Positions 9,927-58,727 of a stretch of 64,000 nt of DNA are shown in pieces. The DNA is from Escherichia phage sutha. How positions within the stretch are numbered: the stretch's first letter is position 1; each line of letters opens with the position of its first letter. The translations under genes and the position numbers were made by a program. The notes under the pieces are model-generated. The model worked only from the letters and a program-made list of their open reading frames with translations, was not told the origin of the DNA and made no database searches. The DNA lies in the sequence record PV245934.1. One strand, given 5' to 3'.

Positions 9927-11815
9927 TTACACCGCCATTTTTCCTTTAATAGAAGGGTGTGATTCGTAACCTTTAAGAACGAAATCTTTAGGCCTGAGTT
10001 TAAGAATGTATTCCAATTGTTCTTTAGTAGAAAGATAGCGGAATTTATAAGGCAATCCGCCTATTACCAGTTCACAAAGCTCTTTAGGTTCACGACGCAA
10101 AATTTCTTTACATTGTTCTACGTGATTCATATAGATATGAGTATTACCGCCAGAAAATATCAAATCTCCTGGAATAAGATTACACATCTTAGCTACAATA
10201 TGAACTAACGCAGCATATGATGCAATGTTGAACGGTAGCATTATGTTCAGATAAGGTCGTTAATCTTATCCCGGAATTATATCCAGCTGCATGTCACCAT
10301 GCAGAGCAGACTATATCTCCAACTTGTTAAAGCAAGTTGTCTATCGTTTCGAGTCACTTGACCCTACTCCCTAAAGGGATAGTCGTTAGGCATTTATGTA
10401 GAACCAATTCCACTTATCAGATTTTACACGGTAAGTAACTAATCCTGATGAAATTTCAAAATGTCTAGCCGCATCGGCTGCACATTCAAAAATAATCCCA
10501 TCGCATGAAATCTTTTTGATGTTAGCTGGCTTTTTGCCTTTCATCTTTTCAGATAGTTTAGTTTTAGTTTTTTCTGAATGTTTGTGATTAAAGAACGGGT
10601 TATTTTCACCTGAACGTTTTCGGCACTTTCCACAAGTATCGGCCGAAGATGGTATGCGAACACCGCATTTACAAAACTTGTGGTTTTCTGGATTCCATCG
10701 GCCATTTTTACTTCCGTGTTTACCATAAAGAGCTTTCCGACCATCAGGACCAAGCTTAAGCATCTTAGCTTTAACAGTTTCAGCTCGTTTCTTAGCAATT
10801 TCTTCTTTTAATGGATGATTTGAAAGCACATCGCCAAAAGACGCATCAGCAATATTATATCCATTAATTTTAGAATTTAGCTCTTTAATCCAAAAATTTT
10901 CTCGTTCAATAATCAAATCTTTCTCATATGGAATTTCTTCCAGTACAGAGCATTCAAAAACATTACCATGTTTATTAAAAGACCTTTGAAATTTTATAGA
11001 AGAGTGAACACCGTTTTCAAGGTCTTTAAAATGTCTCTTCCATCTTTTCTCAAAATCTTTAGCACTTCCAACATACACTTTACCGTTTAAAGTGTTTTTA
11101 ATCTGATAAATTCCGCTTTTCATAAACACCTCTTTTTATATAGAAGTATTTATTAAAGGGTAGTCCTACAATTTAGCACGGGATTGTCTACTAGAGAGGT
11201 TCCCCGTTTAGATAGATTACAAGTATAAGTCACCTTATACTCAGGCCTAAATTAACCTAAGAAAACATCGACACTGCGTTGGTACCATTGTAAATCCAAA
11301 TATCCATTACGCACATTAAACTGATAAAACATATGACAAGGTGGTAATGCCATTTGCTTAAGTTCTGCCGGATTCCATGCTGAAACAATTTGACGTCTAT
11401 CATTTGGCAGTTTTTTAATACGTTCAACAACTTCTATAATTTGATCTACACCACCAAAATCGCGCCACTGTTTTCCATAAATTGGACCAAGTTCACCGCT
11501 ATGGTATCCTAAATCTTTTGCTTGATTTTCGTAATTTTCATCCCAGACTGTTTTGCCTTGAATTAATGAATCATGTTGAATTAATCGCAAATCATTGACA
11601 TTTGTGCTTCCCGATAAAAACCATATTAGCTCAGCAATACAGGCTTTCCACGCTAATTTTTTAGTTGTTACCGCAGGAAAACCTTTAGTTAAATCCCAGC
11701 GTAATTTAGTACCAAACAAAGCAATTGTTCCTGTGCCTGTTCGGTCATCGGTTTCGTAACCATTTTCCAGGATATCTTTAATTAAAAATTGGTATTGTTT
11801 CATTAGTTCATCCAA
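9927..11815 (-). CDS. td: thymidylate synthase, interrupted by group I intron (exon 1 11255-11815, exon 2 9927-10239)
   Basis: Exon 1 ends ...QRSVDVFLG, exon 2 resumes LPFNIASYA...; intron boundaries match the T4 td intron architecture. Confidence 0.85.
10240..11254 (-). mobile_element. td group I self-splicing intron (about 1015 nt) with embedded homing endonuclease ORF
   Basis: Intron 5' sequence TAATTTAGGCCTGAGTATAAGGTGAC... and 3' end ...CATTATGTTCAGATAAGG...AATG as in the T4 td intron. Confidence 0.85.
10386..11123 (-). CDS. I-TevI: intron-encoded GIY-YIG homing endonuclease I-TevI
   Basis: [36 protein letters not shown]..., 245 aa, ends ...KWNWFYINA. Confidence 0.85.
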   Translation of the reverse strand: MKSGIYQIKNTLNGKVYVGSAKDFEKRWKRHFKDLENGVHSSIKFQRSFNKHGNVFECSVLEEIPYEKDLIIERENFWIKELNSKINGYNIADASFGDVLSNHPLKEEIAKKRAETVKAKMLKLGPDGRKALYGKHGSKNGRWNPENHKFCKCGVRIPSSADTCGKCRKRSGENNPFFNHKHSEKTKTKLSEKMKGKKPANIKKISCDGIIFECAADAARHFEISSGLVTYRVKSDKWNWFYINA

Positions 11816-13193: not shown

Positions 13194-13227
13194 GGTAATA
13201 GTATCACACTACTACCCTGCTGTAAAC
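13194..13227 (-). promoter_or_regulatory. T4 early-type promoter
   Basis: rc GTTTAC at 13222-13227 plus downstream TGATACTAT. Confidence 0.45.
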
Positions 13228-13613
13228 TACTTTTTGAAAGTTTTTCGCAAAAGTTCAATGATTTCATCTACATTGTTTTCGTCTACAATGCAGTGAATTT
13301 TTGTTACGCCAGAAACTGGATCTTCAACTCCAGCTTCATCTTCTTCAAGAGTCGGTTCTTTATACTCGCGAAAACAGTAAAATTCATCTTCACAAATTTC
13401 TGCAAGTCTATCACAAAGGTAAAAATGCTTTCCATTCGCGCATTTAATATGTTTTACCTCTTTAAATCCATCAGCAAAGAAAACTTCTTTAACTTCAAAC
13501 CATCCGCCATTTTCTTGGATAATTTTAACTATTGATGCATTGGATCGTGGGCTATGACTAATAAATGCGTCAATAAGGCTTGGAATAAGTTCATACTTTT
13601 CGCCGATATACAT
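13227..13613 (-). CDS. hypothetical protein (128 aa)
   Basis: ORF track. Confidence 0.4.
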   Translation of the reverse strand: MYIGEKYELIPSLIDAFISHSPRSNASIVKIIQENGGWFEVKEVFFADGFKEVKHIKCANGKHFYLCDRLAEICEDEFYCFREYKEPTLEEDEAGVEDPVSGVTKIHCIVDENNVDEIIELLRKTFKK

Positions 13614-13655
13614 TACGTTTTCCTCATTTTAATGTGGCTTGATGCCCCTTGATAA

Positions 13656-13949
13656 TTACTGTTCAATCAATCCCATGTAAAATTCTGCGTCTTCAGAATC
13701 CATACCATCGCAGTATTCATTAGCCATAAATCGTTCAAGAACTTCTAAAGGACCTTCAATAACAATAGAAAAATTGCAATAATTGGGATCATCATGAATA
13801 CTTGTGATACTAAGTTCAGGATAACGATTACGAATAATTTCTTCAATATATTCAAAATCAACGGTGTCAATATCAACTTTAGCCATATTATTTTCCTCTT
13901 TAATCATCAGCAGTATTGCCGATAGTTGTATAGTACCATGGAAGGACAA
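13656..13949 (-). CDS. hypothetical protein (97 aa)
   Basis: ORF track. Confidence 0.4.
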
Positions 13950-13959
13950 GGATGTAAAC
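13926..13959 (-). promoter_or_regulatory. T4 early-type promoter, member of conserved cassette family
   Basis: rc GTTTAC at 13954-13959, -10 block TGGTACTATACAACTATC shared with copies at 30.2, 33.5, 34.0 and 60.5 kb. Confidence 0.55.
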
Positions 13960-13981
13960 CGTTTTGTGAAAAAAATTTTGA

Positions 13982-14008
13982 AATAAAAAAGGGACCTCTA
14001 GGGTCCCC
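13982..14008 (-). terminator. rho-independent terminator downstream of gene 32
   Basis: rc GGGGACCCTAGAGGTCCC hairpin followed by TTTTTTATTT. Confidence 0.6.
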
Positions 14009-14030
14009 AATTAATTAGTAATATAATCTA

Positions 14031-14939
14031 TTAAAGGTCATTCAAAAGGTCATCCAAGTCCGTGTCATCAGCACTAGATGAACTGCCGGAGCTTGAGCTC
14101 ATAAAATCATCTTCAGTTTTTGTATTGAAGTCATCAACATTGAATGCATCCAAATCATCAGCAACTTTATCGGCTTTCTTAGCAGCAGTTGCAGCGGCAC
14201 CACCCATCACAGCAGTTCCCATAACTTGACTGAACTTAGTGCTCAGTTCTTCAAACGATTTGAACTTATCTTTAGAAGTCATTTCAGAAAGGTCAACCAT
14301 TTGTTCGAACAGTTCTTTCTGGAAAGATTCATCATCAATGTTTGGAATCGCAGATTGATTCAGGAATTTAGATTCATCGTAGTTACTAAAACCAGAAACT
14401 TGTTTAACTTTCAGTACAAAGTTAGCACCTTCCCACGGACAAGTTACATCAACTGGAGTTTCACCCATTTCAACATCAACCGCAATCATTGCATTGATTT
14501 TGTCCCAAATCTTTTTACCAAAACGGTATTTGAATACTTTACCTTCGTTTTCTGGAGCTTGTGGGTCTTTAACAACCAGGATATTAGCCCAATAAGAAGT
14601 TTTACGTTTCAGTTGAGAATATTCGGTTTTGTTTGTATTGTACAGGTCATTTTTACTAATGTACTGACACACCGGACAAGAGTCATAATCGCCGTGTGTA
14701 GATGAACAAGTTTCAATATACCATTTGCCATTTTTCTTGAACCCATGGTTAACAAGAATTGCAAACGGAAGTGCGTCATCTGTTTTTGCCGGCAGGAAAC
14801 GAATTACTGCTTGACCGTTACCCGCATTGTCGAGTTTCAGTTTCCACTCGCCTTTATCTTCAGAAGAAAAACCACCTTTATTGCCATTCAGTTTAGCCAT
14901 TTGTGCAGCGAGTTCAGCAGTAGATTTACGTTTAAACAT
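14031..14939 (-). CDS. 32: single-stranded DNA-binding protein gp32
   Basis: [22 protein letters not shown]..., Zn-binding Cys/His cluster, acidic C-terminus ...DLDDLLNDL. Confidence 0.9.
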
Positions 14940-15020
14940 TTTTATTTCCTTTTTAATTTAATTAACAGTTGGTGCTATGACGATGTATGACCTCATAGCT
15001 GGTCAGTGAGATAATTATAA
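14940..15020 (-). promoter_or_regulatory. gene 32 translational operator (UUAAA-rich unstructured tract upstream of start)
   Basis: rc sequence TTAATTAAATTAAAAAGGAAATAAAA immediately 5' of the ATG, as in the T4 gp32 autoregulatory site. Confidence 0.55.
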
Positions 15021-56280: not shown

Positions 56281-56643
56281 TTAAAAGAATTTAAATTTTT
56301 TCTTTGACCTTTTATTAAATGCATCTTGTAGTTGCATTGTAATACATTTTTCTACATGAGGAGCTAACTCAGCTTTTCTTTCTTGGTCAAGAACAGCAAA
56401 GTCCATTACGACTTTTCCATCAACCCAATCTAATTTTGTCACATACACAATGTGTGTAGAACCGTCTTCTAGTTTAATGACAATCTCCTGGATAACATTT
56501 TCCATAGCAGATTTAATTATCTTAAGAGATTCATTAAAAAGACGTTCTTTTCTTTCTTCTTCCCCCTCCGAAGAGGGGGATTCATCGATAATTTCTAGAT
56601 CTAAATCTAAATCATCTTTATTCATTAAATTCTTCCATATCAC
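56281..56643 (-). CDS. 40: gp40 head assembly protein (by position)
   Basis: 120-aa ORF between uvsX and 41; acidic region ESPSSEGEEE. Confidence 0.6.
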   Translation of the reverse strand: MIWKNLMNKDDLDLDLEIIDESPSSEGEEERKERLFNESLKIIKSAMENVIQEIVIKLEDGSTHIVYVTKLDWVDGKVVMDFAVLDQERKAELAPHVEKCITMQLQDAFNKRSKKKFKFF

Positions 56644-56687
56644 TTAACTGATCTAGGTCAGTTTCTAAATCAGCTGCTGATTTACTT

Positions 56688-57800
56688 TTACTTTCTGGAG
56701 ATTTTAAATTTTTCAACCTTTGAGTTAATCAATTCATCAACTTCAGCTTCAACAATTTCATTACTATCAATAGCACCTAACTGATAAGCACGTTTAATAG
56801 CATCTCGGAATGGTTGATGCTTAAATAAAGGACCCCAGAATGTAGTGCAATTGGTATCTTTTGCACGCCAAGATTTTTCTTCGCGAATCATCTCACCGGT
56901 TTCTTCATCAAGAAATTCACGAGCATACCAACCATTTTTAGGTTTTACTACAAATCCTAATTCAAGAGCCATATCTAACAATCCAGAATAAGGATCGATA
57001 CCACCGTCAAATTTAACATCAATAAAGAATTTACTTTTTTCTTTGACGGTACGAGATTTTTCTACATTTAGAACAAATTGATACCCCTGAAGATCAGAAC
57101 CATCTTTAATCTGGCGCTTACCGATAATGAATACAGTATCAGCCGAATACATTACGCCTGTACCACCTGTCATCACGGTTTTACTAAACATTTCAATTGT
57201 TTCAATTGTATGGTTAACCGCAACACATGGAATGTTTTTAATACTAAAATAAGGAGTAACAATACGGAATAATGACTTCAGTGATTTAGCACGAGTCATA
57301 TCTGCCACAGATTTTTCATTCAAGGCATCTTCCGTTTCTTTCTTAGAAGCCATATTACCAATTGAGTCGATGAATACAATAACCTTTTCACCACGCTCAA
57401 TAGCTTCAAGCTGATTCACCATATCAATTTTCAGCTGTTCAACTGACTGAATTGGCGTATGAATTACTCGTTCCGGGTCAACCCCCATGGATCGCAAATA
57501 AGCTGGAGTAATACCAAATTCGCTATCATAGAATAGACAAACTGCATCAGGATATTTGTTCAAATATGCCGCAACCATAGTCAAAGACATATTTGATTTA
57601 AAGTGTTTAGAAGGCCCTGCGAAAATAGTTAAACCAGACTGCATACCGCCATTAATCGCACCAGAAATAGCAATATTAAGCATTGGAATTTTTGTACGAA
57701 TTACATCCTTTTCATTAAAGAATTTAGATGTAGTCAGTTCAGCAGTCATTTTAGAAGTGGAAGCTTTAATCAAACGGGATTTTAAATCTGCAATAGACAT
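56688..57800 (-). CDS. uvsX: UvsX recombinase (RecA homologue), C-terminally truncated by apparent frameshift
   Basis: MSIADLKSRLIKASTSK..., 370 aa ending ...KVEKFKISRK; shifted frame continues to a stop at about 56622. Confidence 0.85.
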   Translation of the reverse strand: MSIADLKSRLIKASTSKMTAELTTSKFFNEKDVIRTKIPMLNIAISGAINGGMQSGLTIFAGPSKHFKSNMSLTMVAAYLNKYPDAVCLFYDSEFGITPAYLRSMGVDPERVIHTPIQSVEQLKIDMVNQLEAIERGEKVIVFIDSIGNMASKKETEDALNEKSVADMTRAKSLKSLFRIVTPYFSIKNIPCVAVNHTIETIEMFSKTVMTGGTGVMYSADTVFIIGKRQIKDGSDLQGYQFVLNVEKSRTVKEKSKFFIDVKFDGGIDPYSGLLDMALELGFVVKPKNGWYAREFLDEETGEMIREEKSWRAKDTNCTTFWGPLFKHQPFRDAIKRAYQLGAIDSNEIVEAEVDELINSKVEKFKISRK

Positions 57801-57878
57801 TCATTTTTTTCCATAGGCATCATTATATTTTCCTCACTGGTTAAAGATAGAGTAATTATAACACAATAAATTTAGGCA

Positions 57879-58727
57879 TTAATCAACTGCTATTGGATGA
57901 ATAGCATTAAACTTATGAAATGCTTCTGATTTTTCTTTACGCGAAACACACATGCGAAGAACCTTTAGTGGTTCATCTTCTTCACCCAACGATTTTCGTT
58001 TTTCAATATTCGATGTTTTCCAACGAGCTTGCTCTGGAAACTCTCTATTGATTTGTTCAAGCGCTCTATTATGTTTAGAATTACTACGAATTGAACTACA
58101 CCCGCCAGGAGCTTGTGCTTTTCCAGATACAACTAGATATTTGAACAAGGCCAAATGCGGATAACCTTGATTAATTAAATTGAGAAATGCATACATATCT
58201 TCGCATAAATCAATTTTTCCATACCCAATTTGTTCTGTAGTAAGTTTTCCAAGGTCATACCATGTATTCGTGAATCCATATGAGTTTTCACGATAATTAC
58301 CCCAAGATGAAGTAATTTTAAAAATTGGTAGACGAGCATGGCCATGATAATACCCGCAATCCATGGCATCCTCAACGTATTGAATCAATTCATAGAACTG
58401 TTCACGAGTTAATTGATTAATTTTATCTACACATCGGCGATCATCTCTTTTTCGCATTGAACTCATACGAATAGTAGTATCATCGTCAATCATCCAGATT
58501 CGTTGACCTGCATACATATCAGTAATTGCTTTACGAGTACCGGCAATTCCATTAACATCATCAGGAATAGTTACAATTTTAGCTTTAGACCCGTAAGCGT
58601 CATAATAAGCTTTTTCTTCATGTTCACGTACTACAATATGGGGTTCATAATCAGTCGGAAACATATCAAGGGCAGAAACTGCCCCTACGCGTTGATAACT
58701 TGGAATTACGAATTGAATCATTTCCAC
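57879..58727 (-). CDS. glycosyltransferase (DXD-motif), at the locus of T4 beta-glucosyltransferase
   Basis: 282 aa with IWMIDDDTTI motif; does not match T4 beta-gt sequence or length (351 aa). Confidence 0.55.
   Translation of the reverse strand: MEMIQFVIPSYQRVGAVSALDMFPTDYEPHIVVREHEEKAYYDAYGSKAKIVTIPDDVNGIAGTRKAITDMYAGQRIWMIDDDTTIRMSSMRKRDDRRCVDKINQLTREQFYELIQYVEDAMDCGYYHGHARLPIFKITSSWGNYRENSYGFTNTWYDLGKLTTEQIGYGKIDLCEDMYAFLNLINQGYPHLALFKYLVVSGKAQAPGGCSSIRSNSKHNRALEQINREFPEQARWKTSNIEKRKSLGEEDEPLKVLRMCVSRKEKSEAFHKFNAIHPIAVD

Follow-up and report, generated by a model that had tools for sequence, protein, structure and literature searches.

Introduction

UvsX is the core enzyme of recombinase polymerase amplification, and its gene is dispensable for plaque formation in T4. 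The T4 protein has 391 amino acids, and the T4 gene lies in a cluster with the order 42, glucosyltransferase, uvsX, 40, 41. T4 is also the phage in whose rII and lysozyme genes Streisinger-type slippage was classically described, and a short A run lengthened by one base is the classic mark of strand slippage. The crystal structure of T4 UvsX (3IO5) covers residues 30-358 (PMC3016280). The acidic, disordered C-terminus of the protein modulates DNA binding and phase separation, and in vitro the truncated forms CΔ49 and CΔ54 abolish condensates and are strongly impaired in strand exchange (PMC11951158).

Here we analyze uvsX in a stretch of 64,000 nucleotides from Escherichia phage sutha (PV245934.1), part of a T4-like (Tequatrovirus) genome and referred to below as the window. 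As in the Streisinger-type frameshifts, an A run at this locus is one base longer than in its ancestral state; unlike them, the case involves an ancestral run of no more than three bases, which makes a weak hotspot, and the change is known here from a consensus sequence.

A one-base insertion places the 3′ end of uvsX out of frame

In the ORF list of the window, uvsX is an ORF of 370 amino acids on the minus strand (56688..57800) that ends in KFKISRK*. Residues 1-366 are collinear with full-length UvsX and are followed by four frameshift-derived residues, ISRK, giving a C-terminal end of NSKVEKFKISRK and a TAA stop at 56690..56688. Alignment against relatives resolved the lesion as a one-base insertion at codon 366/367, by which a run of three A's (A3) has become a run of four (A4). 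The lengthened run, which reads AAAA in coding direction and TTTT on the plus strand, is located at 56702..56705 and extends over codon 366 (Lys) and into the next one. Translation in the next frame from 56704 gave KSPESKSKSAADLETDLDQLSDMEEFNE and reached the ancestral TAA stop at 56620..56618; the out-of-frame 3′ remnant of uvsX on the minus strand (56618..56701) consists of 27 codons, SPESKSKSAADLETDLDQLSDMEEFNE, and this ancestral stop. Dropping one A from the AAAA run restored a UvsX of 393 amino acids ending in SPESKSKSAADLETDLDQLSDMEEFNE. This is two residues longer than T4 UvsX because the window allele begins MSIADLK, compared to MSDLK in T4. The k-mers for the A-run site are AAATTTAAAATCTCCAG and AAATTTAAATCTCCAG.

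The frame layout, the translation and the alignments with relatives thus agree with the claim of an earlier, sequence-only reading that a single-base frameshift in a run of four nucleotides cuts uvsX. That reading had further placed the stop of the restored frame near 56622 and the length of the restored protein at about 391 amino acids: both the frame and the stop were correctly identified, with the exact coordinates of the stop being those given above and the actual length being 393 amino acids.

The ancestral run and the acidic tail are conserved in relatives

Each of the 36 fetched relatives that span the site has three A's there (36/36), and the 24 nt on each side of the A run are essentially invariant among them. 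A 101-base query centered on the site matched 501 phage records, the best of which aligned at 100 of 101 bases with a gap required, and the AAAA allele was absent from all 501. The exact AAAA allele had no match in the IMG/VR viral contigs, in which the wild-type allele, used as a control, had four matches, and it had no match in the JGI metagenome contigs. In species-representative genomes, the exact allele was found only in three unrelated Anaerococcus chromosomes, as chance matches, and the uvsX region had no match at all among E. coli RefSeq genomes. At the protein level, the 370-aa truncated product was not on record in the searched protein collections, and neither was the 32-aa leftover ORF in the collections searched for it. 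Relatives with a UvsX ending in KFKISRK, which the earlier reading had named as the finding that would speak against it, were looked for, and no relative had that end.

The tail that lies out of frame in the window was found intact and in frame elsewhere, as had been proposed from the sequence. It is thus no chance ORF: the exact 27-residue tail is encoded in frame in 21 of the 36 relatives; the other 15 differ by D to E at one position only, and the variation at two other tail codons is all synonymous. One entry of the protein collection, P0016, is identical to the repaired 393-aa protein, and two independent Logan contigs, L025 and L026, encode it. The uvsX DNA of these contigs differs from that of the window at approximately 25-30 nucleotides, all of them necessarily synonymous. 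With only two tail protein forms in the relatives and synonymous changes only in L025 and L026, purifying selection would normally remove alleles of this kind, and the acidic tail is, as judged by these alignments, a selected feature in Tequatrovirus UvsX.

The best phage records are 96-98.8% identical to the window. Contigs that carry the exact gp41, primase, rIIB, glucosyltransferase or gp40 are 92-98% identical to it and have an intact uvsX. Shigella phage vB_SboM_Phaginator, approximately 96% identical, likewise has an intact uvsX and has a 120-aa form of gp40 in common with the window.

The truncated ORF keeps both folded domains

The translated uvsX ORF contains the RecA ATPase core (PF00154, residues 40-268; 44.5 bits against a cut-off of 27) with the Walker A motif GPSKHFKS, and the T4_UVSX_C domain (PF21134, residues 271-335; 132.7 bits) with the full profile, 1-65, covered. 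Residues 31-360 matched the T4 UvsX chain 3io5_A with E = 1.5e-203; the T4 sequence and that of the window protein are identical beyond approximately residue 230. Where T4 UvsX continues with its last 27 residues, the corresponding codons are out of frame in the window and ISRK stands instead. On the domain matches, the truncation falls beyond both folded domains, and the loss is limited to the distal part of the disordered acidic C-terminus, 27 residues in length. Past the last helix, the window protein has a basic stub of 12 residues (NSKVEKFKISRK, net charge +4), which replaces a tail of 35 residues with a net charge of -5.

To place this product among UvsX proteins, a homology search was followed by the alignment of 22 diverse sequences. 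Long forms extend 25-44 residues past the last helix, with a net charge of -3 to -17, and short forms of 356-358 amino acids, which make up 8 of the 22 sampled, end 0-1 residues past it. The short forms (P0143, P0163, P0165, P0174, P0183, P0185, P0194 and P0200; 60-72% identical) are without the acidic tail, P0185 being UvsX of Cronobacter phage S13; the helix after which they stop has the motif EVxxLI, corresponding to residue 358 here. The window product fits neither of these natural classes: the short forms are lineage-wide and have no stub, whereas the window has 12 extra, mostly basic residues in a single private allele. The UvsX proteins of Aeromonas phages (409-411 amino acids) have very long and highly acidic tails, with a net charge of -13 to -17.

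Since whole lineages encode UvsX of 356-358 amino acids, a tail-less UvsX is a viable natural design, and since 8 of the 22 distant homologues are without it, an in-frame acidic tail does not define the family. The tail is typical of Tequatrovirus UvsX (36/36 relatives), and is absent from the window ORF. The description of the restored tail as canonical in the sequence-only reading therefore holds for the Tequatrovirus relatives but not family-wide, given the natural forms that end without it. Because the tail is not universal, its loss is less dramatic than had been implied.

C-terminal deletions of E. coli RecA likewise remove acidic disordered residues. Compared to CΔ49 and CΔ54 of T4 UvsX, the window allele has lost only 27 residues, and the disordered residues 338-366 are retained. 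Given that uvsX can be dispensed with in T4, and that some lineages have proteins ending at the last helix, the 370-aa UvsX predicted from the window has probably kept its recombinase activity. The phenotypic effects that we infer are probable changes in DNA binding, regulation and condensate behavior.

The extra A is the only private single-base indel found in the window

To assess the assembly, all ORFs of UGKSEcP1, a relative collinear with the whole window, were mapped onto the 64 kb by tblastn. Among real genes, uvsX alone switched frame; the remaining flags were antisense ORFs and the thymidylate synthase gene, interrupted by approximately 1 kb of inserted DNA. Private indels were screened with all fetched loci as the panel, at positions where at least three relatives were aligned. 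Two single-base indels at first looked private to the window: the A4 in uvsX and an A7 run lying 3 nt ahead of the uvsX ATG (57804..57810, minus strand), which is A6 in most relatives. The region of this A7 run is 100% identical over 101 bases to RB32, RB33, G4498, OMNI12 and others. A7 is therefore a natural allele and no part of the defect, and the A4 in uvsX is the sole private single-base indel at positions with at least three relatives aligned. A7 was also seen in UAB_60 and 303Ecol101PP, the run being polymorphic (A6/A7) among T4-like phages. A systematic homopolymer error, which had been considered on account of two extra A's bracketing uvsX, was rejected on the grounds that A7 is natural and that no other gene is broken.

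Longer runs were also in agreement with the relatives: between 52 and 62 kb there are 83 A/T runs of at least five bases, none of which is discordant. The DNA polymerase, gp41, Dda, primase, rIIB, glucosyltransferase, gp38 and gp40 all have exact full-length matches in independent assemblies. With its genes clean and its longer runs concordant, the window shows no signature of a homopolymer-prone platform. An independent Logan contig, L019 (SRR32352025 contig 129), matches positions 13199-14964 (1,766 bp) at 100% identity; it covers gene 32 and its neighbors and is the only place where the exact gp32 allele of the window was found. The run SRR32352025 may hold the window phage or a near-clone of it; L019 stops short of uvsX, and no Logan contig of this run extends across the gene.

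Where 10 or more relatives give coverage (7,628 positions), the window has 10 private substitutions (approximately 1.3/kb), two of which are synonymous changes in uvsX. At this rate, the 81-nt tail should have gathered approximately 0.1 private substitution, even with a frameshift as old as the private branch, and the intact tail is therefore without dating power. The sequence-only reading had taken the preserved downstream frame as an argument for one of three origins: a very recent mutation, a homopolymer error of sequencing or assembly, or a real C-terminally truncated UvsX. At an expectation of about 0.1 change, the preserved frame has next to no power to tell a very recent event or an artefact from an older real mutation, and dating by the preserved tail was rejected for this reason.

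Origin of the extra base

What is observed at this locus and in its homologues is that a base has been inserted, that the insertion is unique, that the folded domains are intact and that short forms occur naturally. Our preferred reading, to which we give a probability of about 0.5, is that the insertion is a genuine slippage mutation in the uvsX gene of the phage, with a truncated 370-aa product as predicted by the ORF; the extra A would then be present in the phage DNA, and not in the consensus alone. Strand slippage during replication would have extended A3 to A4 in the short A run of uvsX, on the private branch of the window phage and possibly during isolation or propagation. The shift of frame at codon 366/367 would add ISRK ahead of the stop, and the resulting 370-aa UvsX would retain the ATPase core in full, along with the helical C-terminal domain, while losing the last 27 residues of the acidic tail. 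In a lineage with 10 private substitutions in 7,628 bp, a single private indel is not out of proportion. Few coding positions could tolerate a frameshift as well as this one, which is beyond the Pfam domains, beyond the crystallized residues 30-358, and past the last helix, after which 8 of the 22 sampled homologues end within 0-1 residues. Three points stand against the slippage mutation: the tail is strictly conserved in all sampled Tequatrovirus UvsX sequences, a second independent occurrence was found in no searched collection, and a run as short as three is a poor hotspot for slippage. In addition, the defects of CΔ49 and CΔ54 (PMC11951158) mean that the truncation could be costly.

The main rival is an error of sequencing, base-calling or assembly, such that the phage has AAA and a 393-aa UvsX and the extra A exists in the consensus only; we consider this a serious contender that falls somewhat short of an even chance. 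A gain of one base in a mononucleotide run is the commonest type of consensus error, and none of more than 530 related genomes and contigs carries the extra A. Clear purifying selection otherwise acts on the tail that it breaks, the repaired protein exactly matches proteins from two independent read assemblies, and no searched collection has a record of the 370-aa product or of the 32-aa leftover ORF. The A run also adjoins TCTCC, and the glucosyl-hydroxymethylcytosine DNA of T-even phages disturbs some base-callers, which we count in favor of an error. However, the mapping of UGKSEcP1 ORFs revealed no other broken gene in 64 kb, no other private single-base indel was seen where the panel is deep, the A7 suspect being a real allele, and many proteins are identical to those of independent assemblies. 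A homopolymer-prone platform should miscall the 83 longer A/T runs in 52-62 kb first, and these are concordant. Moreover, the insertion sits past the folded domains, in the last 7% of a gene that is not essential, whereas a random coding error would be more likely to strike an essential position. Two further readings accept AAAA as real. In the least probable of all, AAAA is a site of +1 ribosomal frameshifting, at which tRNA-Lys moves from AAA to the overlapping AAA and both the 370-aa and the full-length proteins are made. The sequence AAA_A does permit perfect +1 re-pairing of P-site tRNA-Lys, and a modest hairpin (z = -2.1) is located downstream; yet the A-site codon, ATC, is neither slow nor a stop, there is no Shine-Dalgarno-like element close upstream, and the hairpin begins approximately 26 nt downstream, in ordinary coding sequence, with one arm over the codon that varies between D and E. 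The shift site is present in 0/36 relatives, in 0/501 phage records and in no viral or metagenome contig, and thus has no evolutionary history as a signal. Four A's are also too few for efficient transcriptional slippage, which we count against recoding. Highly unlikely as well is that AAAA has been selected, either as a basic-stub recombinase of altered function or as an allele that escapes a host defense. The former could have, for example, tighter binding of ssDNA or lower dependence on UvsY, and the latter could evade a defense that senses the activity of the phage recombinase or its DNA intermediates. Escaper mutations in UvsX-like genes of staphylococcal phages have been described in a 2026 preprint (10.64898/2026.06.25.731849).

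Under the slippage reading or that of a consensus error, the 3′ end of this familiar gene carries something ordinary: in the one case a single-base frameshift allele that is private to this phage, in the other a mistaken base. Either outcome leaves the current understanding of UvsX and of T4-like genomes unchanged. If the slippage mutation is real, the phage provides a natural CΔ27 variant of UvsX, with which the contribution of the distal acidic tail can be set against that of the proximal disordered linker, and it would leave gene 40 uncoupled from uvsX translation. If the extra A is an artefact, the annotation should be fixed, with uvsX either repaired to 393 amino acids or flagged as frameshifted.

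Gene 40 and the neighborhood of uvsX

The order of genes on the minus strand of the window is 42 (dCMP hydroxymethylase), a T2/T6-type glucosyltransferase, uvsX, 40 and 41, the same neighborhood as in T4. The position of uvsX between the glucosyltransferase and gene 42 on one side and genes 40 and 41 on the other is the same in the annotated RB32, UGKSEcP1, fPS-2 and others. The glucosyltransferase gene (57879-58721, minus strand) encodes a beta-glucosyl-HMC-alpha-glucosyltransferase of the T2/T6 type, and not the T4 beta-glucosyltransferase, as assigned by PF20691 (TAGT) on the exact protein in relatives; this points to DNA glucosylation of the T2/T6-like kind.

Gene 40 encodes a head vertex assembly chaperone of 114 amino acids (56281..56625, minus strand), and the exact protein is widespread. 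In relatives, the gene 40 ATG overlaps the uvsX stop by 8 nt, as where uvsX occupies 1473-2654 and gp40 2647-2991. Translation of uvsX in the window ends 62 nt upstream of gene 40, so that any coupling between the two would be lost, and translation of gene 40 may be weakly reduced as a consequence. On the minus strand at 56701-56728, the extra A makes a TAAAAT hexamer, with TTAACT 16 nt upstream, and the two form a weak sigma-70-like match approximately 75 nt ahead of gene 40. A new gene 40 promoter formed by TAAAAT was considered and rejected, given that three promoter-like matches were found against a shuffle expectation of 7.2. Gene 40 has an alternative reading of 120 amino acids from an upstream GTG (56281-56643, minus strand), which is annotated in vB_SboM_Phaginator and called on three metagenome contigs. 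All of these have an intact uvsX, and the longer call is therefore a choice of the gene caller and not a marker of the frameshift.

Two inserted elements were seen in the course of this work. The thymidylate synthase gene (td; 9930-11803, minus strand) is split in the window by an insert of approximately 1,016 bp (approximately 10239-11254) that is absent in UGKSEcP1. No intron was reported there by Rfam at the gathering score; the insert contains an ORF of 247 amino acids (10386-11129) with GIY-YIG, I-TevI zinc-finger and I-TevI DNA-binding domains, and on these domains it looks like a T4-type td group I intron with an I-TevI homing endonuclease. In a relative that carries the exact gp41 (L015, OL770073.2), uvsX itself is interrupted (282-2654): its gene calls are a 309-aa protein (RecA_N), a 237-aa NUMOD3 endonuclease ORF and a 215-aa protein (T4_UVSX_C), which suggests the insertion of a homing endonuclease or an intron within uvsX.
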